Counted from the first letter of the stretch, positions 22,308 through 60,680 are shown. The stretch is 64,000 bases of DNA from Nitrospirota bacterium (GCA_963721805.1 CAVRJY010000004.1:288516-352515), one strand, 5' to 3'. The notes: generated from the letters alone by a model not told the origin. Made by a program: numbers and translations.

Positions 22308-22503
22308 ATCATGCCGTTGACCATTCCAATCATGCCGTTGACCACGAGGCGCGGAGGCAGCGGCTGGGCCGCGTACTTCGCCAAGCGCGAGAAATCGTGT
22401 CAGACTAGGAACGGCGAGGAAAACGTCCGAGGTGTACTGAGACGTACATTGAGGACGGATTTCCGAAGCCGTGACAACGTATCACGCGAGTTTCGCGCGC
22501 TTT
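22308..22503 (+). repeat. Long GTAC-centred hairpin element (family R1), copy A, with duplicated 5' motif
   Basis: ATCATGCCGTTGACCA occurs twice (22308, 22329), then AAGCGCG...GTGTAC-TGAGAC-GTACA...CGCGCTTT. Confidence 0.88.
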
Positions 22504-22553
22504 CCAAAAGGCTCCAATTGCATTCAACGAGTTCCGCCCGATATAATCGCACG

Positions 22554-23282
22554 ATGGCCGATAAACCAGATACCCATACAGAGCGGATCAGCAGAATGTT
22601 CGCCTCTATCGCTGGTAGATACGACTTCCTGAACCGCCTCCTGAGCCTCCGCCGCGACGTGGCATGGCGGCGCGCCTCGGCGCGTGCGCTGAGCTTCGGC
22701 ACTACCAACCGCTTCCTCGATGTCGCGACCGGCACGGCGGACCTCGCGCTGGACGTGCTGCGCAGCCATCCGGGCGTGACCGCGCTCGGGGTGGACCTCG
22801 TGGAGGAACTCATGGAGATAGGCCGCGTAAAGGCCGCCCGCGCGAGGATGGCAGCGCGCATCAGCTTCGTCCGCGGCGACGCGCTTGCGCTGCCTGTCGA
22901 GGACGCCTCGTTTGATGCGGCCGGGATCGCCTTCGGCATCCGCAACATCCCGGATCGCGCCGCAGCGCTCCGCGAGATGAGGCGTGCGGTCGTGCCCGGC
23001 GGGACGGTGCTGGTGCTGGAGCTATCGGCATACGCGGTCGGGCCGTTTCAGGGGATGCACAGGTGGTATCTGAAGGCCGTGCTCCCGCGTCTGGCGCGGC
23101 TGTTCACGCACGACCCGGGCGCATACGAGTACCTGACTCGCTCGATCCTCGGGTTCCCCTCGCCGGAGGGCTTCTCGGCGATCATGCGAGAGGCCGGGCT
23201 CGAGGCGGTGAGCGCCAGGCCGCTTACGCTCGGCGCGGCGTACCTCTATACCGGCAGGAGGCCCGCGCAAAAAACCACTTGA
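22554..23282 (+). CDS. ubiE: Ubiquinone/menaquinone C-methyltransferase UbiE/MenG
   Basis: MFASIAGRYDFLNRLLS, LDVATGTAD, FGIRN and AYEYL motifs; true start is the ATG at 22554. Confidence 0.93.
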   Translation: MADKPDTHTERISRMFASIAGRYDFLNRLLSLRRDVAWRRASARALSFGTTNRFLDVATGTADLALDVLRSHPGVTALGVDLVEELMEIGRVKAARARMAARISFVRGDALALPVEDASFDAAGIAFGIRNIPDRAAALREMRRAVVPGGTVLVLELSAYAVGPFQGMHRWYLKAVLPRLARLFTHDPGAYEYLTRSILGFPSPEGFSAIMREAGLEAVSARPLTLGAAYLYTGRRPAQKTT

Positions 23283-23322
23283 CGTTTCGGGCCGCGAAAG
23301 CAGATAATGGATACCGGTTAAA

Positions 23323-23670
23323 ATGAAGCCAACAAAACCACACGATAAGGCGGTATACGAATTGCAGGCCGAGGTCTGCAAGACGATCGCCAACCCTAAG
23401 CGCATCGAGATCATCCACTCGCTGAAGGCGGGGGAGCGCACGGTCTCGGAGCTCGTCGCGATATTGGGCGTGCCGAAGGCCAACGTCTCGCAGCACCTGG
23501 CGATGATGCGCAGCAAGGGCGTGCTCAAGGCCCGGCGCGAGGGAGTGAACATCTACTACAGCCTCACGAACCCGAAGGTCACGCAGGCCTGCCTGCTCAT
23601 GCGCGAGGTCCTGACGGAGCAGATCAAGGAACGCAAGAAGACCCTCGTCAGAAGAAAGTCCGCGGACTGA
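23323..23670 (+). CDS. ArsR/SmtB family transcriptional regulator
   Basis: KTIANPKRIEII, VSELV, NVSQHL and REG..IYY motifs. Confidence 0.92.
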   Translation: MKPTKPHDKAVYELQAEVCKTIANPKRIEIIHSLKAGERTVSELVAILGVPKANVSQHLAMMRSKGVLKARREGVNIYYSLTNPKVTQACLLMREVLTEQIKERKKTLVRRKSAD

Positions 23671-23722
23671 GAACCCCTCACGCGGCAGCCTCAACCTCCC
23701 CGAGCAAAAAAGTGAATCCCCG

Positions 23723-24004
23723 ATGATAGTAGTGATCGAATCGCCGCCGCAATCCGTGCGCGCACAGGCCGGTGTGAGGGCCGCGGCCGACCTCACGGCG
23801 GACATCGCGCTCGTGGGCGATGCGGTGGGGCTCGCGAGGCGCGGGGCGCTGGAGGGGTTTTGCGGCACGGCGCACGCGCTTGAGGACGACGTGCGCGAGC
23901 GCGGCATACCGGAGGGCGAGCTTGAGCGCGGGGTGCGGCTTATCGACCGGGCGGAGCTTAGGCGCCTGATCGAGGCCGAGGGCCGCGTGGAGGGCGAGTT
24001 CTAG
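23723..24004 (+). CDS. DsrE/DsrH(TusB)-like small protein
   Basis: LVGDAV and ALEDDVRERGI resemble DsrH/TusB; follows the ArsR gene. Confidence 0.6.
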   Translation: MIVVIESPPQSVRAQAGVRAAADLTADIALVGDAVGLARRGALEGFCGTAHALEDDVRERGIPEGELERGVRLIDRAELRRLIEAEGRVEGEF

Positions 24005-24606: not shown

Positions 24607-24703
24607 GGGTTAATGATAAGCTTTTTCCCCGCTCTTAGGAAAGCGAGTGACGCATTAGGAATGCAACCACACCTCGAATAGGGGAGGGGCCAAGTCGGCC
24701 CCC

Positions 24704-26551
24704 CTACATCTCGACGCGCGCGGTGACGCCATGCAGCTTGTCCGGCGGCATGTTATGGAAGTGCACGAACGAGGGCGTGACGCGCTTGATCATCGCGAAC
24801 AAGCCCCAGATCGGGTTCGTGGTCATGATCTCCTCGACGCCGTAAAAGATCGACTGGGTCCTGATCCCGTTTTCCTCAAGCAGGGCCGCGATGTCCGCGA
24901 CCTCCATGTAGCCCATCTGTATCTCGAAGGAACGCAGGCCCTTGGCGAAGTCCTCCTTGAAGAACGCGGCCACGCCGTATGGGTCATCGCGCTTGAGGAT
25001 GTTTACGAGTATGTTGTCGTCGTATATGATCCCGTTGGTGAACATCGTGCGTATTATGTACGGGGGGATGAGCTTCGGGTCGCGGACGAAGAAGAGCGCC
25101 GTCCCCTCGATCCTGCGGCGCACCCAGTACTCGCGCTTGTACGTCAGGAGGAACTGCTCGATCGAGATCGGCTTGATCGCCTCAAACAGCCTCCGCTGGC
25201 CCTTGTGGTATACCGTCACTATCGTAAGCGGCACCGAGGCCAGAAGCAGCGACCAGTAGCCGCCGTACGGGATCTTGTGCATCGAGGAGCCGAGGTAGCA
25301 CAGCCCCACCGCGGTGACGAGCACCGAGACCGCGAACTTCACGCGCGAGCCCTTTAAGTGGAATATCCACGACATGAATATCCCGGTGATGACCATCACG
25401 GCGTTGACCGCCAGGCCGTATGCGGCCGCCAGCCGCGCTGACTCGCCGAAGTATATCATCACAACCACGACAGCCACGAGAAGCAGCCAGTTGACCGAGC
25501 CTATATAGATCTGCGCCCGAAGTTCGGAGGAGGTGTTTTCCACCTTCATCAGCGGCATGATGCCGGTGTTGATCGCCTGGTATACGACCGAGTACATACC
25601 GCTTATCATGGCCTGCGAGGCGATCGTAGTCGCGGCCACGCTCAGGAGCACAAACGGCACGTAGAGCAGCGGGGACTGGTGGCGGAACATCTCGAACATG
25701 ATCGACTTCGTCTCGGGGTGGTCGAGCAGGTATGCGCCCTGGCCCATGTAATTTAGCACCAGCGCCACGACGACGAAGTACCAAGCCGTGACTATCGGCT
25801 TGCGGCCCATGTGGCCCATGTCCGCGTAAAGCGCCTCGCCCCCGGTCGCACACAGCAGGGCCTCGCTCAGCACGATGAACCCGGCGAGACCGTTTTCGGC
25901 GAGGAACCGCAAGGCGTACATCGGGTTTGCGGCCGCAAGCAGCTCCGGCCTGTCCATGAGCGCCCCGATGCCCGAGAACGCTATCACCACGAACCATATG
26001 AGCATGATCGGCCCGAAGACCCCGGCCACGCGCTCTGTCCCCCGGTGCTGAAACACGAAGAGCAGCACCGCTATCACGATCGCGATGAATACGATCGAGG
26101 GGCCTCCGAGGCCCTCCCAGCCGGGTATCAGGGCCGCGCCCTCCACCGCGCTTAAGATCGAGATCGCGGGCGTTATCACGCCGTCGCCGATCAGGAGCGA
26201 TATCGCAAGGTAGCTAAGCGCGGTGACCACACCGGCGGCCTTCCCGGTCTTAAGCAGGCTGTGCAGGATCTCGCTCAGCACGATGCTGCCGCCCTCGCCC
26301 TTCCGGCTCAGGCTCATCGCAAGCCAGGCGTACTGCGTGCTTACCAATATCATGATCGTCCAGAACACGAGCGATACGACGCCCATCACGTTGGCCTGCG
26401 TCGGCGGCAGTATAAGGAATATGACCGTGAGGGTATAGATCGGGCTCGTGCCTATGTCCCCGAACACGAGGCCGAGGGACTTCAAGGTCGCGGAGGCGAG
26501 ATTGGGGCCGGGCTTAATGGCGGGGTCCTCCGCCGGGGCGATTATAAGCAA
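24704..26551 (-). CDS. kup: KUP/HAK/KT potassium uptake protein
   Basis: GLVFGDIGTSPIY, GEGG, GDGVITPAISILSAVEG and TGGEALYADMGH motifs; start codon uncertain. Confidence 0.96.
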   Translation of the reverse strand: MLIIAPAEDPAIKPGPNLASATLKSLGLVFGDIGTSPIYTLTVIFLILPPTQANVMGVVSLVFWTIMILVSTQYAWLAMSLSRKGEGGSIVLSEILHSLLKTGKAAGVVTALSYLAISLLIGDGVITPAISILSAVEGAALIPGWEGLGGPSIVFIAIVIAVLLFVFQHRGTERVAGVFGPIMLIWFVVIAFSGIGALMDRPELLAAANPMYALRFLAENGLAGFIVLSEALLCATGGEALYADMGHMGRKPIVTAWYFVVVALVLNYMGQGAYLLDHPETKSIMFEMFRHQSPLLYVPFVLLSVAATTIASQAMISGMYSVVYQAINTGIMPLMKVENTSSELRAQIYIGSVNWLLLVAVVVVMIYFGESARLAAAYGLAVNAVMVITGIFMSWIFHLKGSRVKFAVSVLVTAVGLCYLGSSMHKIPYGGYWSLLLASVPLTIVTVYHKGQRRLFEAIKPISIEQFLLTYKREYWVRRRIEGTALFFVRDPKLIPPYIIRTMFTNGIIYDDNILVNILKRDDPYGVAAFFKEDFAKGLRSFEIQMGYMEVADIAALLEENGIRTQSIFYGVEEIMTTNPIWGLFAMIKRVTPSFVHFHNMPPDKLHGVTARVEM

Positions 26552-26690: not shown

Positions 26691-26869
26691 CTAAGGCTAA
26701 CGCAAGAGCCGTGTTCATGTCAATATGTTAAAGCGCGCCAAATCGTTTGGGGCCGCGTTTAAGGCCGCGGGCACAGTACTGCTGGCCTTCGCCGTGCTGT
26801 TCGGCATCACCTCCGCGCGTCGCGCATAGCGGCTATTGCTTCTTGTGCCTCATGCGTGCATAATGCCAT

Positions 26870-29729: not shown

Positions 29730-30516
29730 ATGGGCGCGAGGCTCGGGCAGCACTTCCTCTTCGACCCGCAAATACTCGGGCGCATAGCCGAGGCCTCCGG
29801 GGCCGGGCCCGAAGACACGGTCGTCGAGATCGGTCCGGGGCCGGGCTCGCTTACGAGGGTGCTCGCCCGGCGCGCAGCGCGCATCGTGGCGATAGAGCTG
29901 GACCAGACGCTCCATGCCCGGCTCGCCGCACAGCTTAAATCCGAAGGGATCGAGAACGTCGAGCTGCACCGCGGCGACGCGCTCAGGTTCAACTACTCCT
30001 CGCTCGGCCCTTTTAAGGTCTGCGCCAACATCCCCTACCAGATCACGACGCCTCTGATATTCCTGCTATTAGAACAGCGCGAGAGGCTTCTAAGCATGAC
30101 GCTCACAATGCAGCGCGAGGTCGCCCGCCGCATCGCAGCGCCCCCCGGGCGGCCATAACTACGGCGTGCTCTCGCTCGCGGTGCAATACCAGGGCGTCCC
30201 TGAGCTGCTTTTCAGCGTCCCCGCCTCCGCGTTCTCGCCCCCTCCCAAGGTCGAGTCCGAGTGCCTGCGCATAACCATGCGGGCGGAGCCCCCGGTCAAT
30301 GTAAGGGACGAGGCGCTGATGTTCCGCGTCATACGCGCGGGGTTCGGGATGCGGCGTAAGACGCTCCATAACTCCCTCGGGCGGCTCGCGCCTGATATCG
30401 ACGCGGTGCTTAGCCGCGCAGGGGTCGACCCCAAGCTGCGGGCTGAGCGGCTCGGCATGGCCGAATTCGCAGCGATAGCTGATGCGCTTGGGGACAGTTC
30501 TGATTTATCCAGATAG
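29730..30516 (+). pseudogene. rsmA: 16S rRNA dimethyltransferase RsmA/KsgA, with a +1 frameshift near 30141-30149
   Basis: LGQHFL, EIGPG, NIPYQIT and MQREVA lie in one frame; YGVLS, FSPPPKVES and RRKTL lie in another. Removing one base from CCCCCCGGG restores PPGGHNYG. Confidence 0.88.
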
Positions 30517-30524
30517 CTTTCTTC

Positions 30525-30709
30525 AAAGCGCTCCAAATCGCTTGATACTGCGTTGGGCTGCGAAGACTCGCCCTCTATGTACGTCCAAGTACACCATCGG
30601 GCGGTCTTCTTGCCCTGCCTTGTCTGAAGACGATTTGGGCGCGCTTTCGGGGTTAAACGCGGCCCAGCCGCTGGACCCCGCACCCCAAGGTCAAAGGCAT
30701 AGATTGGAG
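30525..30709 (-). repeat. Family R1 hairpin element, copy B (followed by an R2 variant to ~30774)
   Basis: Reverse complement: CTCCAATCTATGCCTTTGACC...AAAGCGCGCCCAAATCG...GTGTACTTGGACGTACAT...GATTTGGAGCGCTTT. Confidence 0.9.
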
Positions 30710-30773
30710 TGAACGGGGAAGGGGCCCCGTGAATAAGTGAGCGAAGCGAATAGGGACAGGGGTCCGCGACCCC

Positions 30774-30995
30774 TTATTTGCTGCAAGAGGTGCACTGTGC
30801 CTTAGTGCACGAGGCGCACGATGCCGACGAGGTCCCGGCAAACGGCTTTTCGACCCCGCTCATCCCGAATACCGAGAGCTTCTTCTGCACCTGCTCGCTC
30901 TTGCACGCCGGGCACTCGATCTTTGTAGAGGAACTCATCACGAGCTTCTCGAAATCCGCGCCGCAGCCGCAGCACTTATACTCGTAGATCGGCAT
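30774..30995 (-). CDS. FmdB family zinc-ribbon protein
   Basis: MPIYEYKC..C...FE...CPAC motif. Confidence 0.9.
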   Translation of the reverse strand: MPIYEYKCCGCGADFEKLVMSSSTKIECPACKSEQVQKKLSVFGMSGVEKPFAGTSSASCASCTKAQCTSCSK

Positions 30996-31008
30996 GGTTA
31001 ATTGTACC

Positions 31009-31059
31009 AAAAAAAAGGCGCCTGCCGCAGGAGGAATGATCCCGGCGGCAGACGCTTTT
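31009..31059 (-). terminator. Rho-independent terminator after the large surface protein gene
   Basis: GCGTCTGCCG / CGGCAGGCGC stem followed by T8 on the minus strand. Confidence 0.7.
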
Positions 31060-31080
31060 CTGCTATTTAAGCGTTATTGC

Positions 31081-35661: not shown

Positions 35662-35731
35662 GCAAGCAACCTCCGGATCATTTAAAAAGACTGTCGGTGG
35701 AAAAAGCCTCTACCACGCCAATTGAGGCCTC

Positions 35732-35761
35732 AGTCTACTCGCATCTCCGATGCCTTGTCAA
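35732..35761 (-). promoter_or_regulatory. Sigma-70 promoter of the surface protein gene
   Basis: TTGACA-N18-TAGACT on the minus strand. Confidence 0.6.
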
Positions 35762-35868
35762 TGTATGCGGATGCCCGTAAAACCTTGCTATTGCAATCTT
35801 TCGGTGCGGAGGGGCAAAAGTTTACTACATCTGAATCGGCACCGGAATGGCGGCTGGCTGGCACTCCT

Positions 35869-36169
35869 CTAATCAATGCCGTTGACCGCTCGCACGCGCA
35901 GGTACTTAAAACTGAAAGCGCGATAAATCGCGTCAGACTAGGGGGCCGAATGGCCCCCTTTCCATATTCGCGGGACTAACGGCCCCGCTCACAGCACAAC
36001 TCCAATCATGCCGTTGACCGCTCGCACGATTATGCAGCAGAAGCTTAAAGCGCGATAAATCGCGTCAGACTAGGAAGGGCGAGAAGACCGCCCGATGGTG
36101 TACTTGGACGTACATAGAGGGCGAGTCTTTGAAGGCCTGACAACGTATCACGCGACTTTAGCGCGCTTT
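35869..36169 (+). repeat. Mosaic: truncated R1 (35869-35942), R2 (35941-35991), full R1 (36000-36169)
   Basis: AATC(A)ATGCCGTTGACCGCTCGCACG and AAAGCGCGATAAATCGCGTCAGACTAGG each occur twice, separated by an R2 unit. Confidence 0.88.
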
Positions 36170-36202
36170 AAAAAAAGTGTTCAGAGAGGTGTCAGTCAGC
36201 CC

Positions 36203-48319: not shown

Positions 48320-49039
48320 CTAGGGCTTGTCGCGAAGCAGGCTGATTAGACTTCTGGCCTCGCGGTTTTCGGGGCTGACCTTCAGCGCCTGCTCCCACTC
48401 GGTCCGGGCCTCGGCGAAGCGGCCTGCGGTGTAGTGGGATATGCCGAGCTGTACGTAAGCCGGGGCATAGGTCGCGTTGGCGGCCTTGGCCTTCTGGAAG
48501 GACTCCATCGCCTCGGCCTGCCTGCCCTTCTGCCGTAGCGCCATGCCCATCCTGACATGCACGTCCGGGAGGCCGGGCCTCAGGTGTATGGCCTTCGTGA
48601 ACTCCTCTATCGCCTCGGAGATGAGCTGGTTTTCTATGTACAGCCGTCCGAGCTTGTAGTGCTCGTTCGCGAGCTTCCCGGCGATGAAGTGGTCCGTGAG
48701 CCCGACCCTGCCGTCCGTCTCGACGACCGCCTTGGCATTGGCCCCGGCCGTCAGCACCTCGCGGGCGCGCTCGGTCTGGCCGGTCTCGTTTAATGTGATC
48801 GCGAGGTTCATCGCGGCCTCGGCGTACGCGGGGTTGAGCCTGATGGCCTCCTCGAACCGCTGCACCGCGACCTCGAGCCTTCCGTCGAGGTTCGCTATCA
48901 CGCCGAGCTTGTTGAAGACGTCGGCGTAATCGGGCCTGAGCTTGGCGACCTCGTCGAGCAGGCCTTCGGCCTCGACGTAGTTGCCTTCCTCGAATAGCTC
49001 ACGGCCCCTATCGTATAAGTCTTTTACCGCGTCGCTCAT
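48320..49039 (-). CDS. TPR protein
   Basis: Multiple 34-aa TPR-like repeats. Confidence 0.88.
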   Translation of the reverse strand: MSDAVKDLYDRGRELFEEGNYVEAEGLLDEVAKLRPDYADVFNKLGVIANLDGRLEVAVQRFEEAIRLNPAYAEAAMNLAITLNETGQTERAREVLTAGANAKAVVETDGRVGLTDHFIAGKLANEHYKLGRLYIENQLISEAIEEFTKAIHLRPGLPDVHVRMGMALRQKGRQAEAMESFQKAKAANATYAPAYVQLGISHYTAGRFAEARTEWEQALKVSPENREARSLISLLRDKP

Positions 49040-49093
49040 AAATTGAAGTATATCGGCCTGATTGTGGCCCAGTCAAGAGGTGGAAGCTTTCTC

Positions 49094-49280
49094 AAAGCGC
49101 GCGAAACTCGCGTGATACGTCGTCAGTTCTCGAAAACTCGCCCTCGGAGTACGTCTCAGTACACCATCGGGCGGTTTTCTCGCCCCTCCTAGTCTGACAC
49201 GATTTCTCGCGCTTTCGGGGGTTAGACGCGGCACAGCCGCTGGACCCCCGCGCCCCCAAGGTCAACGGCATTGATTGGAG
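49094..49280 (-). repeat. Family R1 hairpin element, copy D
   Basis: AAAGCGCGCGAAACTCG...GTACGTCTCAGTACACC...CGCGCTTT...GGTCAACGGCATTGATTGGAG. Confidence 0.9.
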
Positions 49281-49348
49281 TTGCCAACTCATCCGTTGTG
49301 GCCTAATATGAAATCTGGCGCATAAAACGAATCATAAGGAGTATTGCG

Positions 49349-50470: not shown

Positions 50471-50478
50471 CCTTTAGG

Positions 50479-50706
50479 AAAGCGCGCCAAATCGCTTGAT
50501 ACTTCGTTGGGCTTCAAAGACTCGCCCTCTATGTACATCCAAGTACACCATCGGGCGGTCTTCTCGCCCTGCCTTGTCTGAAGACGATTTGGGCGCGCTT
50601 TCGGGGGGAAAGAATAACGAAGCCCCCCGCGCCCCCAAGGTCAACGGCATTGATTAGAAATGAGAGGCGCTTGGCGCCGCGAATAGGGGCCGGGGGCGCT
50701 GCCCCC
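50479..50706 (-). repeat. Family R1 copy E (50479-50657) abutting an R2 unit (50657-50706)
   Basis: Near-identical to copy B, followed by GAGAGGCGC...CGCGAATAGG and GGGGCGCTGCCCC. Confidence 0.9.
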
Positions 50707-50740
50707 TTGACATTGGTGGAGGGGGTGATATGATTGGAGA

Positions 50741-51097
50741 ATGAAGGTCCTCATCGTTGACGACGAATATTTCATCTGCCAGTTGTGCAAGGAAGAACTC
50801 GAAGACGAAGGCTACGAGGTCGTGCTCGCCCATGACGGCGACGAGGCCATCGCAATGGTCGAGAGCGAGCACCCTGACCTCGTGGCCCTGGACATCAAGA
50901 TGCGCTACGAGGGCGAGGGCGTCCACGCCCTGAGGCAGATCAAGCAGGCGCATCCCAACCTTCCGGTCATAATGGTCACCGCATACGACGACTTCAAGGA
51001 CGACCTCTCGATCTGGGCCGCGGACGCCTACGTCATCAAGTCCTCCGACCTTACCGAACTCAAAAAGACCATCGCCAAGTTCATCGGCCACCCTTAG
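50741..51097 (+). CDS. Single-domain response regulator
   Basis: IVDDE, LDIKM and VTAY motifs. Confidence 0.92.
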   Translation: MKVLIVDDEYFICQLCKEELEDEGYEVVLAHDGDEAIAMVESEHPDLVALDIKMRYEGEGVHALRQIKQAHPNLPVIMVTAYDDFKDDLSIWAADAYVIKSSDLTELKKTIAKFIGHP

Positions 51098-51103
51098 AAG
51101 GGG

Positions 51104-51455
51104 AAAGCGCGCCAAATCGCTTGATACGTCGTCATCGTTTGAAAATATCCCTCCAGAGTACATCTCGGTACACTTGCGGGCTATTTTCAAACGCTTCCTA
51201 GTCTGAAGCTGATTTCGCGCACTTTCAGTGCATCCCATGCGTAAGCGTAAACTCTAAATAACCCCTCCAATCATGCCGTTGACCTTGTGGGGCGCGGGGG
51301 ACGGGGCCGACTGGCCCCCTTTCTCTCCCCGCAAAGCGCGCCCAAATCGTCTTCAGACAATCCACTGCGAGAAGACCGCCCGATGGTGTACTGTGACGTA
51401 CATGGAGGGCGAGTCTTTGATGCCCAACGCAGTATCAAGCGATTTGGCGCGCTTT
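51104..51455. repeat. Two oppositely oriented R1 elements: F (51104-51225, minus, divergent) and G (51265-51455, plus)
   Basis: Both have the AAAGCGCG...GTAC..GTAC...CGCTTT core; G has the CTCCAATCATGCCGTTGACC end and an internal GGGGCCGACTGGCCCC. Confidence 0.88.
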
Positions 51456-51539
51456 GAAGAAAGCGACTGATGCCGCCTAAGCCCCCGGTATGTTAAAATT
51501 GATATTTATAATTTCTCTACCTAAGGATGGTGATTTGAG

Positions 51540-52559
<1,020 letters not shown>

Positions 52560-53159: not shown

Positions 53160-53210
53160 GAGTGAGAGGCGCTTTAGCGCCGCGAATAGGAAACGGGGCC
53201 AGTCGGCCCC
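53160..53210 (-). repeat. R2 repeat at the left breakpoint of the tandem duplication
   Basis: GTGAGAGGCGC...CGCGAATAGG...GGGGCCAGTCGGCCCC. Confidence 0.8.
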
Positions 53211-53231
53211 TGCCCCCTTGCGCGTTACTGT

Positions 53232-54152
53232 TTATGGTGTCGCTAAAAAGCCATGCCAGCCGCTGGCATTGCTGAACGATCCCACGATGTTGCTGCCGTC
53301 TGTCCCGGCGGCATATGTGCCACCTGTCGCATCCGGGGCGTCAAGGGTCTGCCATGAGCTGTCGGTGGTGTTGTATATAAAGCCATGTTCACCGCCCGCA
53401 TCGTAGAATCCACCCACGATGAGGCCGCCGTTTATCCCATAGGGAAATGTGCCGTCTGTCGCATCCGGGGCGTCAAGGGTCGTCCACGAGCTGTCGCCGG
53501 TGTTATAAATAAACCCATGATAAGTAACGTTATCGTAGAAATACCCCACGATGAGGCCGCCGGATATCCCCTCGGCAGATGTTCCACCTGTCACGTCCGG
53601 ATCGTCAATAGTGGTCCACGAGCTGTCGTTGGTGTTGTATATAAAGCCATGCGCACCGACGGCATCGTCAAACTCTCCGACAATGAGGCCGCCGTTTATC
53701 CCATTAGTAAATGTTTGACTTGTCGCATCCGGATCGTCAAGGGCCGTCCACGAGCTGTCGCCGGTGTTGTATATAAAGCCATGTCCATGGGAGCTGCCGT
53801 CGTAGTACCCTCCCACGATTAAGCCGCCATCCACAGCGTTGAACCATGTGCCATCTGGTGCATCCGGATTGTCCAAGGTAGTCCACGAGCTGTCGCCGGT
53901 GTTGTAAATAAAGCCATGATAAGTAACGTCATCGTAGAAATATCCCACGATGAGGTCGCCGCTTATCCCATTAGTATATGTGTCGCCTGTCGCATCCGGA
54001 TCGTCCAAAGTAGTCCATGTGAACTTAAGCCCGCCGCCGCCGCCGCCATCGCCGTTGCTATCGCTATCGCTACCGCTACCGCAGCCCATAAGGGCGAGGC
54101 AAAGCGTTAAAATAATGGATGCAATGGCTGCGACAGTCTTGTGTCTGTTCAT
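53232..54152 (-). CDS. Lipoprotein with six ~43-aa repeats (predicted beta-propeller), copy 1
   Basis: LMGC lipobox, Gly/Ser linker, WTTLDDPDAT...GI.G..IVG...HGFIY repeats. Confidence 0.85.
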   Translation of the reverse strand: MNRHKTVAAIASIILTLCLALMGCGSGSDSDSNGDGGGGGGLKFTWTTLDDPDATGDTYTNGISGDLIVGYFYDDVTYHGFIYNTGDSSWTTLDNPDAPDGTWFNAVDGGLIVGGYYDGSSHGHGFIYNTGDSSWTALDDPDATSQTFTNGINGGLIVGEFDDAVGAHGFIYNTNDSSWTTIDDPDVTGGTSAEGISGGLIVGYFYDNVTYHGFIYNTGDSSWTTLDAPDATDGTFPYGINGGLIVGGFYDAGGEHGFIYNTTDSSWQTLDAPDATGGTYAAGTDGSNIVGSFSNASGWHGFLATP

Positions 54153-54212
54153 GTATGAAGCCTCCTTAAAGGCTAATAGTCAGGTGTCAGATATTTGAAA
54201 AATCCTACCGTT

Positions 54213-54241
54213 AATATATATCCGTTCCCCCTTAAAGTCAA
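54213..54241 (-). promoter_or_regulatory. Sigma-70 promoter of lipoprotein copy 1
   Basis: TTGACT-N17-TATATT; the duplicate at 55429-55457 reads TTGACT-N17-TATAGT. Confidence 0.7.
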
Positions 54242-54304
54242 TAGAAGGCTCGGAAAAATAACCGGGCAGTTAAGTGCGATAACAAACCTTCCGGCAAATC
54301 CCTA

Positions 54305-54336
54305 CCCTGCCGTGTGAAGGCAGTGCTCTCCCGCTG
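54305..54336 (-). pseudogene. tRNA-Val(CAC)-like fragment (D-loop plus anticodon arm)
   Basis: Reverse complement CAGCGGGAGAGCA-CTGCC-TTCACAC-GGCAG-GG; no T-arm or acceptor stem. Confidence 0.6.
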
Positions 54337-54359
54337 TCAGATGTGCGTGAGGGGATTAG

Positions 54360-54415
54360 TGAAGCGAATAGGTGAGCGGCGGCAGCGCGAATAGGAAACG
54401 GGGCCAGTCGGCCCC
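54360..54415 (-). repeat. R2 repeat at the junction of the two duplicated units
   Basis: GAAGCGAATAGGTGAGCG...CGCGAATAGG...GGGGCCAGTCGGCCCC. Confidence 0.8.
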
Positions 54416-54438
54416 GCTGCCCCCTTGCGCGTTACTGT

Positions 54439-55368
54439 TTATGGTGTCGCTAAAAAGCCATGATACGTGTTGTCGTCAGTGTGGTAATATCCTACTATGC
54501 TGCTGCCGTCTGTCCCCAAAGGATATGTGCTGCCTGTCATATCCGGATCGTCAATGGTCTGCCATGAGCTGTCGGCGGTGTTATATATAAAGCCATGATC
54601 ATGGCCGCCACCTGTGAAATATCCCACGACAAGGCCGCCGTTTATCCCAATGGCATCCGTGTCGCCTGTCGCATCCGGGGCGTCAAGGGTCTGCCAAGAG
54701 CTGTCGCCGGTGTTGTATATAAAGCCATGACCACCGCCTGCATCGTAGAATGTGCCCGCGACGAGGCCGCCGGATATGGCATTGGCATATGTGCCGTCTG
54801 TTGCATCCGGGTCGTCTATAGTAGTCCACGAACTGTCGTTGGTGTTGTATATAAAGCCATGACTGCCGGCGGCATCGTAGAATGTGCCCGCGATGAGGCC
54901 GCCGGATATCCCCTCGACCTCTGTGCCATCTGTTGCATCCGGATCGTCCAAGGTAGTCCACGAGCTGTCGCCGGTGTTGTATATAAAGCCATGACCACCG
55001 CCTGCATCGTAAAATGCACCCACGACTAGGCCGCCGTTTATCCCATTAGGATATGTGTCGCCTGTCGCATCCGGATCGTCCAAAGTAGTCCACGAGCTGT
55101 CGCCGGTGTTGTAAATAAAGCCATGAGCACCGCCGTTCTCGTCGAAATATCCCACGATGAGACCGCCGTTTATCGCACTGGCATTTGTGCCATCTGTCGC
55201 ATCCGGATCGTCCAAAGTAGTCCATGTGAACTTAAGCCCGCCGCCGCCGCCGTTGCCGTTGCCGTTGCCATTGCTATCGCTATCGCTACCGCTGCCGCAG
55301 CCCATAAGGGCGAGGCAAAGCGTTAAAATAATGGATGCAATGGCTGCGACAGTCTTGTGTCTGTTCAT
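54439..55368 (-). CDS. Lipoprotein with six ~43-aa repeats, copy 2
   Basis: Signal peptide identical to copy 1; repeats diverge at loop positions. Confidence 0.85.
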   Translation of the reverse strand: MNRHKTVAAIASIILTLCLALMGCGSGSDSDSNGNGNGNGGGGGLKFTWTTLDDPDATDGTNASAINGGLIVGYFDENGGAHGFIYNTGDSSWTTLDDPDATGDTYPNGINGGLVVGAFYDAGGGHGFIYNTGDSSWTTLDDPDATDGTEVEGISGGLIAGTFYDAAGSHGFIYNTNDSSWTTIDDPDATDGTYANAISGGLVAGTFYDAGGGHGFIYNTGDSSWQTLDAPDATGDTDAIGINGGLVVGYFTGGGHDHGFIYNTADSSWQTIDDPDMTGSTYPLGTDGSSIVGYYHTDDNTYHGFLATP

Positions 55369-56083: not shown

Positions 56084-56132
56084 ATCGCCTACTAATTACA
56101 GTTATTAAACCTTTTTAACTCAAAAAAAGCAA

Positions 56133-56182
56133 GGGGGGCCGACTGGCCCCTTCCACTATTCGCGTGGGCGAGGCCCCGCTCA
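56133..56182 (+). repeat. R2 repeat
   Basis: GGGGCCGACTGGCCCC...TATTCGCG...CCGCTCA. Confidence 0.8.
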
Positions 56183-57579: not shown

Positions 57580-57742
57580 AGCTCGCCTCCCGTCTTAGTT
57601 CTAGCTGCTCCCAATCATTGTACCACTTCGAGAGAAAGAGGATTCGAAAGACGAAGACACCCCCGATACGCGCCTGAGACAGGATGCCTGTCTCCGGCGC
57701 GTACCGGGGGTGCCAAACGGGCCATGACCCTAGTGCGCTATC

Positions 57743-58681
57743 CTATCGTGGCTGTTCGTCCTGTTTGCCCCCATCCTGCTTGTCTTTCTGCTGCTTGTCT
57801 TTCTGCTGCTTGTCTTTCTGCTGCTTGTCTTTCTGCTGCTTGTCTTTCTGCTGCTTGTCTTGCTGCTGCTTGCCTTGAGGCTGCTTGCCCTGCTGCTGCT
57901 TGCCTTGAGGCTGCTTGCCCTGAGGCTGCTTACCCTGCTGCTGCTGCTGCTGCTGAATCTCATGCTGCTGTTTCGGCTGCTGAACCTGAGGCTGCTGCTT
58001 CGGCTGCTGTACCTCATGCTGCTGTCTTGGCTGCTGCACCTGCGGCTGTTTCGGCTGCTGAACCTGAGGCTGCTGCTCGCGCCTTGGCTGCTGCGTCTGA
58101 GGCTGTTTCGGCTGCTGAGTCTCATGCTGCTGTTTCTGGACATCAGGCCTCTGCTTATACTGCTGTTCCCTCTGCTGTCTCAGCTCCTGCCTCTGCTGTT
58201 TCGGCCTGGGCTGATAGCCCTGGACACCCCACGTCCCTTGTCTTTCCCAATGCCGGTCTCTCTGCCAGCTCTTCCAGTTCTGCTGCAGCTGTCTTTGGGG
58301 GATCGGCCGGTAATCCCACCGGTGGCCGTACCAGTCGTGGTTTCTGTAGTACCCTCTCCAGCCCGGGTCCACATCGAAATAAAAGGTCGGGATACCGCTG
58401 TAATAGCCCCATCCCCGGTTGTAATAGGGTGAGCGGTACCAGCGGCCGTCCCAGAGCCGCCACCAATAACCATTCCAGAAAAACAGGTCCACGTCGATAT
58501 CGGGGGCGACGTAGACGTTATCCGAATCAGGCAGCACTATCACGGACGGCGGTGCGCCAAAGACGATGGGCGGCGGCAGCGGCAGGCCGATGCTGATGTT
58601 GATCTGTGCCCTCGCAATCGTTGGCATGGATACCGCCATTGCCAACGCGAAAAGCATTGTTATTAAAAACAGCTTCTTCAT
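57743..58681 (-). CDS. Secreted Pro/Trp/Tyr-rich protein, copy 2, with expanded Gln-rich repeat tail
   Basis: Closely similar to 56495..57109; perfect 15-bp repeat x5 (KQQKD) at 57781-57855. Confidence 0.8.
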   Translation of the reverse strand: MKKLFLITMLFALAMAVSMPTIARAQINISIGLPLPPPIVFGAPPSVIVLPDSDNVYVAPDIDVDLFFWNGYWWRLWDGRWYRSPYYNRGWGYYSGIPTFYFDVDPGWRGYYRNHDWYGHRWDYRPIPQRQLQQNWKSWQRDRHWERQGTWGVQGYQPRPKQQRQELRQQREQQYKQRPDVQKQQHETQQPKQPQTQQPRREQQPQVQQPKQPQVQQPRQQHEVQQPKQQPQVQQPKQQHEIQQQQQQQGKQPQGKQPQGKQQQGKQPQGKQQQDKQQKDKQQKDKQQKDKQQKDKQQKDKQDGGKQDEQPR

Positions 58682-58878
58682 TTTTTGTCTCCTTTCCTTA
58701 CGGGGTGCTGAGGGTTCCGGGTCTATACGCCTAATCCATATGAGCGTTATCCTCTATAATTGGGAGTCTATCACACAATATTGAAGAGCGGAAGCGGGCA
58801 CAGGGGCGGCCGCCCCCTTGACATATATCGGGCCGCGAGCGATGATAAGCGATCATATCCGGGGAGGGCTGCGACAGC

Positions 58879-60024
58879 ATGGGGATGAACAATACGGTTT
58901 TTCTAGAGGTCATCGAGTGGTTCGACGACAGCGGCAGCGCGCTTGCGCACCGCGTGCCCGAGGAGGGCTCGGGCGAGATAAAGTTCGGCGCCCAGCTCGT
59001 GGTCCGCGAGAGCGAGGCCGCGGTGTTTTTCTATAACGGCCGCGCGTACGACGCGATAGGCCCAGGACGGCACACCCTGAAGACAGGCAACCTCCCGCTG
59101 ATCACCAAGGCGCTCTCGCTGCCCTGGGGCATGACCAGCCCGCTGCGCGCCGAGGTCTGCTTCGTCAACATGAAGGTCTTTCCCGACCTCAAGTGGGGCA
59201 CGCGCGACCCTGTGGCGTTCAAGGACAGCAAGCTCGGCCTGATCCGCCTGCGCGCGTTCGGCATCCTGAGCATACGCGTGGTGCAGCCCGTCCTGTTCAT
59301 CAACAGCCTCGTCGGGACGAAGGCCGCATACGGCGTCAAGGATTTAGAGGAGTTCCTCGGCAGCATCGTCGTCTCGCGCCTCAACGACCACCTGGGCGAG
59401 CACCTCGAAAGCATCATCGACCTGCCGGGGCGGTATGACGAGCTCTCGGGCGGCCTCCTGCAGCGGATCGCGTCGGACTTCAGCCGCTACGGCCTGGGCG
59501 TGGGCAACCTCTACATCAACTCGATCACGCCTCCGGAGGACGTGCAGGCCGCGATAGACGACAAGAGCCGCCTCGGCGTATTCGACGACCTCAACAAGCT
59601 CCTTCAGATGAAGACCGCGATGGCCATAGAGAAGGCCTCGGACGCCCCCGCTGGCACCGCCGGCGCGGGGATGGGGATGGGCGTGGGGCTGATGATGCCC
59701 GCGATGTTCAGCGAAATGCTCCGTAACGGCGGCGGAGCGGCCGCCCCTGTCAAGGCAGCCGACGCCTGCCCCAAGCAGACCGAGTGCACCGTATGCCACA
59801 AGTCGATCCCATTCGACGCGAGTTTCTGCCCCTTCTGCGGCCACAGCATGATCGTCTTCATCAAGTGCCCGGCCTGCGGCAAGGACCTGCCGCCCTCGGC
59901 GAAGTTCTGCATCAACTGCGGCCGCCAGGTCGAGGAGAAGCCCGCCCCGAAGCAATGCAAGGGCTGCGGGGCCGAGAACCTCCCGGAGAGCGTCTTTTGC
60001 AACAAGTGCGGGGAGCGCCTGTAG
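58879..60024 (+). CDS. SPFH/band-7 domain protein with double zinc ribbons (YdjI-like)
   Basis: GAQLVVRESE.AVFF, GPGRHTL.T.NLP and KWGT..P motifs; C-terminal CxxC...FCxxCG repeats. Confidence 0.88.
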   Translation: MGMNNTVFLEVIEWFDDSGSALAHRVPEEGSGEIKFGAQLVVRESEAAVFFYNGRAYDAIGPGRHTLKTGNLPLITKALSLPWGMTSPLRAEVCFVNMKVFPDLKWGTRDPVAFKDSKLGLIRLRAFGILSIRVVQPVLFINSLVGTKAAYGVKDLEEFLGSIVVSRLNDHLGEHLESIIDLPGRYDELSGGLLQRIASDFSRYGLGVGNLYINSITPPEDVQAAIDDKSRLGVFDDLNKLLQMKTAMAIEKASDAPAGTAGAGMGMGVGLMMPAMFSEMLRNGGGAAAPVKAADACPKQTECTVCHKSIPFDASFCPFCGHSMIVFIKCPACGKDLPPSAKFCINCGRQVEEKPAPKQCKGCGAENLPESVFCNKCGERL

Positions 60025-60142
60025 GGGTCACAGCCCCCTTTTACTTAGGGGCTCCGCCCCCATGGCCCCCGGGACGACTGACCCCTCTTGCCCAGGGGGA
60101 AAGGTGCCCGTAGCACCCATCTTGTGGTATGCTATTTGTGCT

Positions 60143-60592
60143 ATGAAATCGCTACGCATAACGCTCGCAATCGCGCTGCTCTTCGCGGCGCTCGCGGCCT
60201 GTTCGACCGAGCAGAAAAAGCCCAGCGAGGAGGCCGTGATCGTCGATAAGGCGATGGCGATTATTGAATCAGTCCGGCAGGGTTACGTCGCGCACGACTT
60301 CGAGGCCGTGGGGCAGGAGACGACGCCGGAACTCAAAAAGAAGATCAAGGACGAGAGCAAGGGTTTCAACTCGGTAGTGCTCGAAATCACGCCCAAGTGG
60401 GTCGACATCGACCAAAAGCCGCTCGGCCGCACGAAGAAGCTCTCGGTGCGCACGCTCTGGAAGGGCAGCTGGAAGGTCGGGGATAAGACGTACGAAGAGC
60501 AGGGCAACGCGGTGTTCGTCCTCGACGGCGACCCGCTCCTCCTCCAGGACATCACAGGCAACGATCCGTTCACCCATCCTCAGCCTAAATAG
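60143..60592 (+). CDS. Hypothetical lipoprotein
   Basis: MKSLR...LAAC lipobox. Confidence 0.7.
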   Translation: MKSLRITLAIALLFAALAACSTEQKKPSEEAVIVDKAMAIIESVRQGYVAHDFEAVGQETTPELKKKIKDESKGFNSVVLEITPKWVDIDQKPLGRTKKLSVRTLWKGSWKVGDKTYEEQGNAVFVLDGDPLLLQDITGNDPFTHPQPK

Positions 60593-60603
60593 GAGCCGTT
60601 TTC

Positions 60604-60680
60604 AAAGCGCTCCAAATCGCTTGATACTTCGTTGGGCTTCAAAGACTCGCCCTCTATGTACGTCACAGTACACCATCGGG
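60604..60680 (-). repeat. Family R1 partial copy H
   Basis: AAAGCGCTCCAAATCGCTTGATAC...GTACGTCACAGTACACCATCGGG, truncated at a GGTGCC-ATG-GGCACC hairpin. Confidence 0.85.

Follow-up and report, generated by a model that had tools for sequence, protein, structure and literature searches.

The window, by which we mean the whole 64-kb stretch of DNA analysed, contains a family of ~130-base hairpin-forming repeats (R1), which lie between genes and of which ten copies occur within 39 kb (Table 1). All nine copies reported in the original prediction were found, no more than a few bases away from the positions given there, and the family is confirmed as real. A tenth copy (c0) and a lone fragment downstream of c1 were not part of that prediction.

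Table 1. R1 copies, a related fragment and the insertion sequence of the window. Scores are in bits; the R1 model is a covariance model built from R1 copies, the MAG model one built from MAG copies only.
Feature	Position	Strand	R1 model	MAG model	Remarks
IS481-like element	20560..21759				28-nt ends 20560-20587 and 21732-21759; DDE transposase 20673-21707
c0, diverged hairpin copy	21868..22005	-	39.4 (E 6e-9)	31.7 (E 5e-7)	apical stem differs; without 5' box; fold -68.5 kcal/mol, z -7.5
c1, full copy	22303..22512	+	124.7	82.2	hairpin 22382-22505; end 36 nt before TATAAT (22541-22546) and 49 nt before ubiE-like ATG (22554)
Lone fragment resembling the hairpin 3' foot	26730..26759	-			83% inverted match to 51426-51455; upstream of c-di-AMP riboswitch; no match by either model
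c2, full copy	30517..30712	-	141.7	70.5	hairpin foot (30526) 9 nt from stop (30516) of opposite-strand rsmA/ksgA piece; 5' box with 1 mismatch
c3, partial copy (5' box, linker, first ~28 nt of hairpin)	35868..35942	+
c4, full copy	36000..36177	+	140.3	95.1 (E 3e-26)	top match of MAG model in the window; hairpin 36047-36169, end 31-33 nt from stop of opposite-strand response-regulator/PAS gene (36203-37192)
c5, full copy	49086..49283	-	134.8	76	flanked by two divergent promoter-like sites (minus strand 49076-49047, plus strand 49281-49309)
c6, full copy	50471..50662	-	149.2	74.7	hairpin foot (50479) 8 nt after stop of plus-strand Oxidored_FMN gene (49349-50470)
c7, hairpin only, without 5' box	51096..51233	-	121.3	69.4	foot (51104) 6 nt after stop of plus-strand response-regulator gene (50741-51097); head-to-head with c8
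c8, full copy	51265..51463	+	135.7	59.3	upstream of asd (51540), same sense
c9, hairpin 3' half only	60596..60686	-	40.9	21.4 (E 7e-4)	80 nt, 95% inverted match to 51379-51458; foot 8-11 nt after stop of plus-strand ORF 60062-60592

In a full copy, a 5' box of 19-20 nt and a variable linker rich in GC precede a bulged hairpin of 123 nt, and a short tail comes last. The hairpin, an imperfect palindrome, measures 122-128 nt in the relatives described below; box, linker and tail are extra modules that accompany it in the window genome. The 12-mer ATGCCGTTGACC of the 5' box was found seven times exactly and once with one mismatch in the window, each time at the 5' side of an R1 copy, with two boxes in tandem (22303-22344) ahead of the linker and hairpin of c1. 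When up to two mismatches were allowed, there were 21 matches against 5.19 expected, a number reached by none of 100 shuffles. A repeat finder placed 30525, 49095, 50479, 51104 and 60604 in one 133-nt family and paired it with 36047 and 51327 through inverted matches of 73-137 nt (87-95%); dispersed copies share up to 94-95% identity over stretches of 80-133 nt and their flanks are unrelated, in keeping with recent spread. The covariance model built from R1 copies recovered the seven full copies with 121-149 bits and the partial copy at 60596-60729 with 40.9 bits. The reverse strand of true copies still scored 24-37 bits, because the element is nearly palindromic.

Truncated copies are c3, c9 and the fragment at 26730, and c3 and c4 represent one tandem duplication, their 5' boxes lying 132 nt apart with that of c3 upstream. 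R1 also forms a mosaic with a second repeat family (R2): c3 runs into a GGGGCC-N4-GGCCCC hairpin of this family, a member of it comes next to c6 (50658-50695), and the linker of c8 contains an R2-type GGGGCCGACTGGCCCC hairpin.

The only mobile-element protein encoded in the window is the IS481-like transposase listed in Table 1, and c0 begins 109 nt beyond the right end of its element. This proximity, the score retained by the reverse strand and the foot of the R1 hairpin, which resembles terminal inverted repeats (AAAGCGCG / CGCGCTTT), would suit an ordinary MITE whose source was a DDE insertion sequence, or else a palindromic site bound by protein as double-stranded DNA, with covariation arising by template switching from arm to arm and not by selection. 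We nevertheless hold this explanation to be very improbable. The ends of the one insertion sequence of the window (TGTAAAGG... / ...CTTTTACA) differ from those of R1 and are unrelated to it, and no target-site duplication varying from copy to copy was seen, so that R1 is not a MITE of this element. The flanking AAAG(C) is the same at all copies and is therefore part of R1 rather than a target-site duplication. Template switching would erase invariant mismatches and asymmetric loops, yet these are kept across phyla, and the strand asymmetry described below would be meaningless at a double-stranded site.

Covariation and strand asymmetry of the fold

On the strand that carries the 5' box, four R1 copies folded with z-scores of -5.3 to -7.0 relative to dinucleotide shuffles. 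In the R1 alignment, 89.6% of the 1125 pair cells were standard pairs, compared with 65.5% in shuffles (0 of 500 reached the observed value), and both sides changed in 36 of 42 pairs. Slid controls were 26-49% paired, with a covariation score of 0.05-0.11 versus 0.516 for R1. The compensatory differences listed in the original prediction (CGCCC/GGGCG versus CGTCC/GGACG, AGAC/GTCT versus AAAAC/GTTTT, and CCAAA/TTTGG versus GAAA/TTTC versus TAAA/TTTA) were all visible in the alignments and pair tables. The covariation is strong, and the central proposal of that prediction, that structure rather than sequence is selected, is supported and extended.

The stems vary freely so long as pairing is kept, while three unpaired or mismatched patches are constant. 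The first is YGUCAGAC opposite GUAUCAMGCG, which brings one C-C and one G-A opposition into the lower stem; the second consists of purine-rich loops with G-A oppositions below the apex; and the third is the apical G-UGUAC-N3GAY-GUACA-Y. The apex is invariant and the most conserved part of the element, whereas the foot differs between lineages.

R1 also occurs outside the window genome, which the original prediction had not covered. One genome scan found the same architecture at 10 loci in Clostridia MAGs from unrelated gut bacteria; these copies share with R1 identical unpaired and mismatched sequences, while their stems are unrelated. A covariance model built from 17 MAG copies recovered all 7 full copies of the window, with E values from 3e-26 to 2e-15. 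The covariation thus holds across two phyla, and the loop sequences are kept in a Nitrospirota-like genome and in Clostridia MAGs; their identity implies a conserved reader.

The fold is selected on one strand. On the selected strand, that of the 5' box, G-U occupied 82 pair cells and A-C 25 (29 rows), and this strand was the more stable in 17 of 19 copies, both with RNA parameters (mean advantage -8.6 kcal/mol) and with DNA parameters (mean -3.6 kcal/mol). A makes up 42% of its unpaired positions and U 10%, and its loops show recurrent G-A oppositions. A-rich unpaired positions and recurring G-A oppositions are typical of functional RNAs.

Orientation of R1 relative to genes

The orientation of R1 is polar, a further property beyond the original prediction. 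At 12 of the 14 sites situated between two same-strand genes, including 4 of 4 inside a ribosomal-protein operon (locus L006), the selected strand is the complement of the flanking genes, and at 11 of these 12 the foot of R1 overlaps the upstream stop codon or lies at most 33 nt from it. In the window, the 3' end of the selected strand is always directed at the nearest gene boundary. For c2, c4, c6, c7 and c9 this boundary is a convergent stop codon, and for c1, c5 and c8 it is the promoter region of a gene in the same sense. Within 40 kb, copies occur on both strands, and their direction is that of the genes instead of that of one replication strand; the lagging-strand logic of IS200/IS605 elements is therefore inapplicable. 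In the MAGs, the surroundings are housekeeping operons, not mobile islands, and the copies fill intercistronic gaps, with stop codons that overlap the foot and the next start 20-70 nt away. A copy adjoining uvrB is 95-98% identical among four Gallimonas genomes, in which it occupies an orthologous site, while third positions of identical codons at this locus show 74-75% identity in 4 of 6 Gallimonas pairs. This copy looks more like a host-constrained element than like decaying selfish DNA.

The location just behind stop codons raises the question whether R1 acts in cis within the mRNA, in the sense of the gene like REP, ERIC or BOX elements. As a 3'-UTR or intercistronic hairpin, it would stabilise the upstream message, direct RNase processing or stall terminating ribosomes. 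The mRNA must contain R1 at the 12 same-strand sites, 0-33 nt past the stop at 11 of them, its fold in the mRNA sense is still strong (-41 to -69 kcal/mol), and the conservation next to uvrB would fit as well. REPs close behind stop codons have been reported to reduce translation of the gene upstream, and a 2026 preprint reportedly presents REPs as local 3'-UTR regulators. We think this explanation unlikely all the same. Pairing is kept on the opposite strand: when read in the mRNA sense, the 82 G-U cells turn into A-C mismatches, the share of standard pairs drops from 89.5% to 84.2%, and the loops are 42% U. That the selected strand is in most cases complementary to the neighbouring mRNA likewise argues against a cis-acting mRNA element, and c5, between its divergent promoter-like sites, and c1 and c8, upstream of promoters, are on account of these positions probably absent from any mRNA.

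One-strand selection combined with polarity towards the mRNA complement fits either a folded-DNA site or an antisense or independent RNA. In the second case, the selected strand would give rise to a structured RNA. This could be a small RNA, antisense or independent, or else a one-way terminator or insulator that halts transcription heading for the 3' end of a convergent gene or for a promoter downstream. The asymmetry is indeed RNA-like, whether judged by the excess of G-U over A-C, by the preponderance of A over U among unpaired positions, by the G-A loop oppositions or by the mean stability advantage; the loop sequence is conserved across phyla, the uvrB locus shows conservation of the kind expected from purifying selection, the 3' end of the selected strand points to the nearest gene boundary, and the copies of the window begin with AAA and finish with UUU. 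Against this, no sign of a promoter belonging to R1, and no room for one, was found in the window and MAG copies examined. The 5' box contains TTGACC, yet this has no -10 partner at 16-18 nt and promoter scans called none. Since the MAG copies occupy the gaps between cistrons, each site would need a promoter of its own, newly evolved within coding or RBS sequence, and antisense transcription would oppose a ribosomal-protein operon. An intrinsic terminator, with a GC-rich stem followed by at least five U, is not what we found: the copies of the window finish with just three U, a consistent U run is lacking in the MAG copies, and terminator scans of 48900-51600, 21700-22700 and 30400-36400 never flagged the main R1 hairpins. 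We hold a structured RNA to be somewhat unlikely.

Partner enzymes and a folded single strand

The original prediction stated that no partner enzyme lies in the window, and this was borne out: Pfam scans of 173 ORF translations, in sets of 48, 21 and 104, gave no Y1/HUH transposase, tyrosine recombinase or reverse transcriptase. The RAYT/IS200-type TnpA or recombinase gene that it proposed to look for was encountered neither in the window nor, with respect to HUH/RAYT genes, within 5 kb of R1 at the 10 related loci, where none of 55 ORFs (43 + 12) was a candidate partner. R1 gave no plasmid or phage match. It also matches no catalogued RNA. Rfam 15 searched at the gathering threshold yielded only a c-di-AMP riboswitch in the whole window and nothing in the ten MAG loci; with E values up to 10, it gave only snoZ173 in 49000-51500 (20.5 bits, cutoff 70) and two matches in the MAG array L010 (9.7 and 15.3 bits), far under the cutoffs.

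The explanation that we tentatively prefer, while considering it short of probable, is that R1 is a hairpin repeat that is not autonomous and that, as a folded single strand, is read by a factor encoded elsewhere in the genome. The hairpin would be recognised by a factor specific for both sequence and shape, with folded DNA favoured by analogy with the bottom strand of integron attC sites or with REPINs, and the partner might be a hairpin-binding recombinase or an HUH-type enzyme that copies or moves R1. Copies would be retained chiefly where the active strand serves as the transcription template for the adjacent gene, a short way beyond the stop codon of that gene. We infer that the folded molecule may be DNA, that a trans-acting enzyme probably exists, that R1 is or was mobile, and that its polarity would reflect a bias in survival or insertion. 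Several observations do not favour such a mobile hairpin, namely the lack of a partner among the 173 window and 55 related-locus ORFs, the fact that neither a target-site duplication nor an empty site was seen, the A-rich unpaired positions with their recurring G-A oppositions, the near-identity of the uvrB copy (against ~74% at synonymous sites), the housekeeping-operon contexts in MAGs and the presence of copies on both strands.

A broader proposal, which we regard as improbable, is that R1 stands for a class of strand-specific folded sites, hitherto unrecognised and spanning phyla, which occur where ordinary genes and operons have their 3' ends and are selected by the host. One version would be a site for recombination or processing of single-stranded DNA, similar to attC but functioning in the absence of an integron; the other would be a dedicated structured RNA or terminator antisense to operons, including those for ribosomal proteins. 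In either version R1 would be read by a conserved protein and kept by host selection, and would not be mere selfish DNA.

Comparison with known systems

Of the three mechanisms offered in the original prediction (a single-stranded DNA mobile element, a recombinase site or a structured non-coding RNA), our results narrow the choice without settling it, since they fit folded DNA or an antisense or independent RNA, while membership of the attC sites, of the REPINs and of the insertion sequence of the window fails. An IS200/IS605-derived PATE, which would have distinct subterminal hairpins at its left and right ends, TnpA/TnpB nearby and its active strand on the lagging-strand template, does not apply either, as R1 has one hairpin only, occurs on both strands in line with gene direction and lacks any Y1_Tnp/OrfB match in the window and at the related loci scanned.

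attC sites measure 57-141 nt and sit directly behind an ORF. R1 resembles them in size, in the conservation of structure instead of sequence, in unpaired bases that confer strand choice, in the possibility of arrays and in a folded strand that is complementary to the coding strand and lies immediately 3' of an ORF, this last being a resemblance of layout only. According to PMC5371416, the folded attC strand that is recombined is the bottom strand, and in 25 of 30 chromosomal integrons it is located on the strand with the lower tendency to fold. R1 differs in that the inverted RYYYAAC/GTTRRRY (R''/R') core pair expected at the hairpin foot is present on one strand in 0 of 10 elements (the whole window has two attC-type core pairs, neither overlapping R1) and in that the window encodes no IntI or tyrosine recombinase. 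R1 is found beside housekeeping operons on both strands rather than in a one-way cassette array, and its apex is its most conserved part, whereas the terminal structure of attC is variable.

Like REPs and REPINs (PMC6006769), R1 is multi-copy, extragenic, hairpin-forming and non-autonomous. As with the REPIN-RAYT system, its partner would be expected to be a single distant gene and its persistence to be long, with vertical inheritance, and it takes part in mosaic clusters with other repeats, as in BIMEs. The layout is nevertheless different: REPs are units of 20-40 nt and a REPIN has a variable spacer flanked by two inverted REPs, whereas R1 is a single hairpin of 122-128 nt with its middle, the apex, most conserved and a foot that varies between lineages. 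No terminal GTAG/CGTC tag was apparent at the R1 foot when copies were read, no RAYT was found in the 64-kb window or within 5 kb at 10 loci, and the polarity of R1 follows transcription.

ERIC, BOX, Correia and similar repeats are imperfect palindromes of ~100-150 nt in transcribed intergenic regions, with a hairpin kept by compensatory change; they are restricted to a genus or family and occur in both orientations. R1 is distinguished from them by loop sequences that span two phyla and by a selected strand that is the non-mRNA strand. Long, covarying, multi-copy single stems form a described category, the 'mobile/repeat sequence candidates' of Narunsky et al. 2024 (PMC11109978), for which RNA versus DNA as the relevant form is left undecided there. 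By that description, the likeness lies in one long covarying stem, many copies per genome and occurrence in several phyla, while MRSC-65-2 carries a UYCCGG repeat that was absent from the R1 copies read, and the orientation of the class relative to genes is inconsistent, whereas that of R1 is polar. In being multi-copy and intergenic and in having a covariation-backed fold, R1 belongs with the structured intergenic repeats, broadly defined, of the REP/ERIC/MRSC kind.

Copies of R1 and the DNA around them

The original prediction listed nine intergenic copies of R1, the dispersed bulged-hairpin repeat, and all of them proved real: the 5'-box 12-mer ATGCCGTTGACC occurred seven times exactly and once with one mismatch in the window, and each of the eight occurrences marked the 5' side of a reported copy. 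With up to two mismatches allowed, there were 21 matches against 5.19 expected, a number reached in none of 100 shuffles. The hairpins were also recovered by a repeat finder, as a 133-nt direct family and as inverted matches of 73-137 nt (87-95%). A covariance model built from the seven full window copies (model R1) gave these copies 121-149 bits and detected a tenth, diverged copy (c0; see the table), which folded at -68.5 kcal/mol (z -7.5). Four copies, folded as the 5'-box strand, gave -50 to -62 kcal/mol, with z scores of -5.3 to -7.0 relative to dinucleotide shuffles.

On the sense strand, i.e., that of the 5' box, a full copy consists of four parts: box, linker, hairpin, and tail. The box (19-20 nt) reads YCYAATCA(A)TGCCGTTGACC and is present twice in tandem in c1. 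The linker (~27-48 nt) is GC-rich, itself hairpin-prone, and common only within subfamilies; that of c8 holds a copy of another repeat. The hairpin, 123 nt long in the window genome, rises from a foot (AAAGCGCG/CGCGCUUU) and a second helix (AAAUCG.../...CGAUUU) to a lower patch in which UCAGAC faces GUAUCA (oppositions U-A, C-C, A-U, G-A, A-U, and C-G). Above this patch come an asymmetric purine-rich loop, two variable helices, a GA/GA-type loop, and the apex, G-UGUAC-N3GAY-GUACA-Y. The tail is CTTT-N3-4-AAAG(C/G). Three copies are incomplete: c7 has neither box nor linker, c3 consists of the 5' part only, and c9 of the 3' half only. When the 5' box was compared by eye with the hairpin loops for a possible pseudoknot, only 5-nt complementarities were found.

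Among the genes of the window are asd and those for flagellar export and the hook; a c-di-AMP riboswitch lies upstream of a Kup-type potassium transporter gene (24704-26551). One listed relative of the asd protein is 95% identical to it and the others 77-81%; all 10 of the latter that bear an organism name are labeled Thermodesulfovibrionales, Nitrospirota, or Nitrospirae bacterium; judged from this one protein, the host phylum would be Nitrospirota-like. The window contains another dispersed repeat family, 'R2'. Its hairpin, GGGGCC-N4-GGCCCC (10 matches in the window against 0.65 expected), often has a CGCGAATAGG box and a hairpin of the form GGCGC-N3-4-GCGCC beside it, and the family may serve as the window genome's usual terminator module. 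Since it interrupts or abuts c3, c6, and c8, the intergenic DNA is a mosaic.

Several R1 copies are overlapped by long spurious ORFs. Two ORFs without a Pfam match and a gene for a HEPN/RES-domain protein lie in the low-GC3 island, and an IS481-like element follows them. The following ~800 nt (21760-22550) contain no convincing gene; they carry three tandem GGAACYRGTTCC palindromes (21760-21816) and four CATCCGAACA-type repeats (22113-22296), as well as c0 and c1. An open frame of 523 codons passes through c0 and c1, and its 3' part conceals a UbiE/COQ5-type methyltransferase gene. The likely start of this gene, ATG 22554, is 8 nt past a TATAAT, so that its mRNA may be leaderless. The two pieces of the RrnaAD gene match profile positions 7-147 and 154-260, and the split is either a frameshift or an assembly error. 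A small zinc-ribbon-like ORF between the NHL-repeat gene and c2 presumably resembles FmdB-family regulators.

Coordinates of features in the window and, where a locus is named, in Clostridia MAGs
Feature	Position	Strand	Details
R1 copy c0, tenth, diverged	21868-22005	-	model R1, 39.4 bits, E 6e-9
Short 3'-foot fragment of R1	26730-26759		repeat finder
R1 hairpins in L006, Christensenellaceae MAG	4395-4520, 6775-6908, 8784-8919, 9092-9230	-	
R1 arrays, Gallimonas	L001, L007, L008, L010: around 4500-5080; L003, L005: contig ends		
Repeat family 'R2'	11506-11551, 24670-24705, 35942-35972, 39192-39207, 50658-50695, 51296-51323, 53163-53211, 54382-54418, 56132-56182, 62893-62943		
c-di-AMP riboswitch RF00379	26562-26694	-	81.9 bits, E 1.6e-17
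RrnaAD, rsmA/ksgA-like gene, two pieces	29730-30158, 30166-30516	+	different frames
Low-GC3 island	17600-21759		GC3 0.32-0.36 vs about 0.85 elsewhere
IS481-like element	20560-21759		28-nt imperfect inverted ends
UbiE/COQ5-type methyltransferase gene	22554-23282	+	Pfam E 1.6e-51, residues 289-515
Zinc-ribbon-like ORF, MPIYEYKCCGCG...	30774-31010	-	GC3 0.78
48-nt tandem units			inside coding region, FliK-like gene
132-nt tandem units	ORFs 53232-54152, 54439-55368		inside coding region, paralogous ORFs
15-nt tandem units	ORF 57743-58681		inside coding region
150-nt tandem units			inside coding region, NHL-repeat gene
102-nt TPR tandem units			inside coding region
Spans of these tandem repeats	41906-42625, 53244-55281, 57731-58200, 34812-35554, 62228-62737		

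Relatives in Clostridia, covariation and strand

One genome per species was scanned with a single pattern, in which 22 specified bases plus two ambiguity codes represented the invariant apex and the lower loop. This yielded 10 loci, all in Clostridia MAGs labeled Candidatus Gallimonas, Roseburia sp., Christensenellaceae, and Clostridia or Clostridiales bacterium; the window's own genome was not among them. These loci are not chance matches. In nine of them, the fold is a single long hairpin whose loops keep their places and whose stems are unrelated in sequence, and in the tenth (L006 4385-4531) the fold is broken by an insertion in the 5' arm. Model R1 found 17 copies in the loci at E <=0.01, in every case on the strand that the pattern had matched. 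A second covariance model (model R2) was built from these 17 sequences alone; they are independent of the window, but their alignment, made on the window-derived model, is not fully so. Model R2 recovered all seven full window copies (59-95 bits, E 3e-26 to 2e-15), c0 (E 5e-7), and c9 (E 7e-4), together with a reverse-strand echo (E 3e-6) and a noise match (E 0.47). Over the window and the loci, it gave 30 matches at E <=0.01, 29 of them on the sense strand.

Extra copies were found in Gallimonas arrays, and L006 contained four copies. The arrays comprise 3-5 tandem hairpins of two alternating subtypes in the order uvrB - array - HAD-like gene - uvrA. Their length and far neighbor vary, the last two units are conserved throughout, and the two units nearest uvrB are ~95% conserved between Gallimonas species. 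The hairpin adjoining uvrB is 95.2-98.4% identical in four genomes; third positions of identical codons in the adjacent uvrB are 74-75% identical in four of the six pairs, and 88% and 93% in the other two. This indicates that the units are either under purifying selection or evolve in concert towards a master sequence that is conserved.

Every compensatory difference quoted in the original prediction was confirmed when the copies were read side by side, and the window copies by themselves already showed double changes in 6 of 30 predicted pairs. Because MAFFT misaligned the variable stems across lineages (25 pairs only), we used model-guided alignments, which lean towards the modeled structure and on which the pair counts rest. 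In the 30-row alignment, which is fitted to the structure and whose rows are related, standard pairs filled 89.6% of 1125 cells compared with 65.5% in shuffles (0 of 500 reached the observed value), and double changes occurred in 271 cells (85 expected). When the partner was shifted by 1-3 columns, pairing fell to 26-49% and the covariation score from 0.516 to 0.05-0.11. The proposal that structure rather than sequence is selected was thus upheld: 36 of 42 pairs changed on both sides, and the invariant positions are the unpaired or mismatched ones.

For the comparison of strands, the single reverse-strand row was dropped. The 29 sense rows contained 889 Watson-Crick, 82 G-U, 25 A-C, and 89 other cells, so that standard pairs amount to 89.5% on the sense strand and to 84.2% if the complement is read. 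The unpaired internal positions were A in 467 cases, G in 318, C in 224, and U in 114. We folded the 19 of these 29 copies that were full-length with clear ends, i.e., excluding c9, three extra L010 array units, three L003 matches, L001 4616, L002 406, and L006 4395. With RNA parameters, the sense strand was stabler in 17, equal in one, and less stable in one (mean difference -8.6 kcal/mol); with DNA parameters, it was stabler in 17 of 19 (mean -3.6 kcal/mol). The usual C-to-T bias of coding and leading strands would favor G-U on the opposite strand, and we therefore read the asymmetry as selection.

Position relative to genes and possible mechanisms

The sense strand of R1 is usually the complement of the neighboring genes, as found at 12 of the 14 sites flanked by genes on the same strand (c3/c4 and the Gallimonas uvrB locus each counted once). 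Five window sites are complementary (c0, c3/c4, c6, c7, and c9) and two are same-sense (c1 and c8); the latter two each precede the likely promoter of the gene that follows, and each faces a complementary copy in a head-to-head arrangement. All seven MAG sites are complementary: the Gallimonas uvrB-(array)-HAD-like-uvrA locus, an ABC-transporter operon (L004), the gap between a Nuo51-type gene and an Fe-hydrogenase gene (L009), and four ribosomal-protein operon gaps of L006, after S5, SecY, IF-1, and L36. Set aside from the 14 were c2 and L002 4942 (convergent), c5 (divergent, and exactly between two divergent promoter-like sites), and L002 406 (left neighbor unannotated). The hairpin foot is close to the upstream stop codon, at 6 nt in c7, 8 nt in c6, 8-11 nt in c9, 9 nt in c2, 31-33 nt in c4, 11-14 nt at Gallimonas uvrB, and 11 nt in L009; it overlaps the stop in L004 and at three of the four L006 sites (2 nt at the fourth), and is about 160 nt away in c0.

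Since copies occur on both strands within 40 kb and the GC skew is flat, polarity follows transcription, and a replication-strand bias is out. A simpler account may be that sense insertions inside transcription units are harmful and are lost. The only sense copies left would then be those that precede a promoter or follow the last gene of a unit (c1, c5, c8, c2, and L002). No obvious cause for such harm was found in the sequence.

Any model must cover a fold selected on the non-mRNA strand, unpaired patches that are invariant across phyla, and gene-end placement with fixed polarity. We tentatively prefer a non-autonomous hairpin repeat that some factor, encoded elsewhere, would read in the form of a folded single strand. 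As had been predicted, there is no partner enzyme in the window: no Y1/HUH transposase, tyrosine recombinase, or reverse transcriptase was found among 173 ORF translations, nor among the 55 ORFs of the ten MAG loci. The folded strand would most simply be DNA, and by analogy with attC, the sites that retain copies would be those at which the active strand is the template strand of transcription. Integron attC is the nearest worked example of such a reading: according to one paper, the bottom strand, which folds, is complementary to the coding strand of the cassette, and it lay on the less readily folding template in 25 of 30 chromosomal integrons (PMC5371416).

That R1 is instead an RNA made from the sense strand is somewhat less likely. 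The A-rich loops, the G-A oppositions, and the conservation of the site would suit it well, but MAG copies fill intercistronic gaps and no promoter fits: the 5' box contains TTGACC with no -10 partner, scans of three regions called no promoter at any R1 copy, and by eye none of the sigma-54, sigma-28, and ECF-type patterns compared with the box fitted it. A cis-acting mRNA hairpin would agree with the position of R1, but is contradicted by the strand asymmetry, and we consider it improbable. We regard a simple DDE-type MITE, or else a binding site in duplex DNA, as very unlikely.

Several specific candidates were rejected. An mRNA-sense mini-ORF of 16 codons, from AUG/GUG at the apex to a conserved GUC-UGA, has no Shine-Dalgarno sequence; among 27 copies, four had no recognizable apex, start and UGA were in frame in 13 of the other 23, three copies read M-stop, and several ran on or shifted frame. 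R1 encodes no peptide. The apex of some copies resembles a high-affinity CsrA ligand, but a GGA decoy is not a conserved feature, the loop being N3GAY with GGA in some copies only. Nor is R1 a terminator by the usual rules: it has only three U, and scans of three regions flagged none of its main hairpins. The attC core pair was present in 0 of 10 elements, and the layout of REP/REPIN differs. R1 is not a MITE of the neighboring IS481-like element, the only IS in the window, since its ends are unrelated to the 28-nt inverted ends at 20560-20587 and 21732-21759.

Comparison with known repeats

REP, REPIN, ERIC, and attC are established kinds of element. Long covarying hairpin repeats, a known kind to which R1 belongs, usually go under 'selfish, function unknown' and are taken to be lineage-specific. 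No Rfam family matched R1 in searches of Rfam 15; a full copy had no blastn match (word size 11) in 72,556 plasmid and 50,697 phage records, and we found no description of the motif in the full-text literature outside subscription journals. One paper describes long, covarying, multi-copy single stems as 'mobile/repeat sequence candidates'; one of them, MRSC-65-2, is set apart by its description, with a conserved UYCCGG repeat that is not seen in R1 (PMC11109978). R1 also fails the defining features of attC, REPIN, PATE, and DDE-MITE wherever these are testable.

Even as an ordinary mobile repeat, R1 would be useful as a marker family, and the long spurious ORFs that overlap its copies would still be a warning to gene callers. 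If its reader were identified, this would account for a type of 'dark' intergenic DNA that recurs, and the reader could prove to be a new hairpin-specific DNA or RNA enzyme. R1 departs from the selfish, lineage-specific picture in four ways that are new: loop sequences common to a Nitrospirota-like genome and gut Clostridia, apparently two phyla, selection on the non-mRNA strand, tight polarity with stop codons close by, even inside a ribosomal-protein operon, and conservation beyond synonymous sites at one orthologous site. Taken together, these departures point to a specific conserved reader protein and to a strand-dependent gene-end process that is absent from the catalogues.
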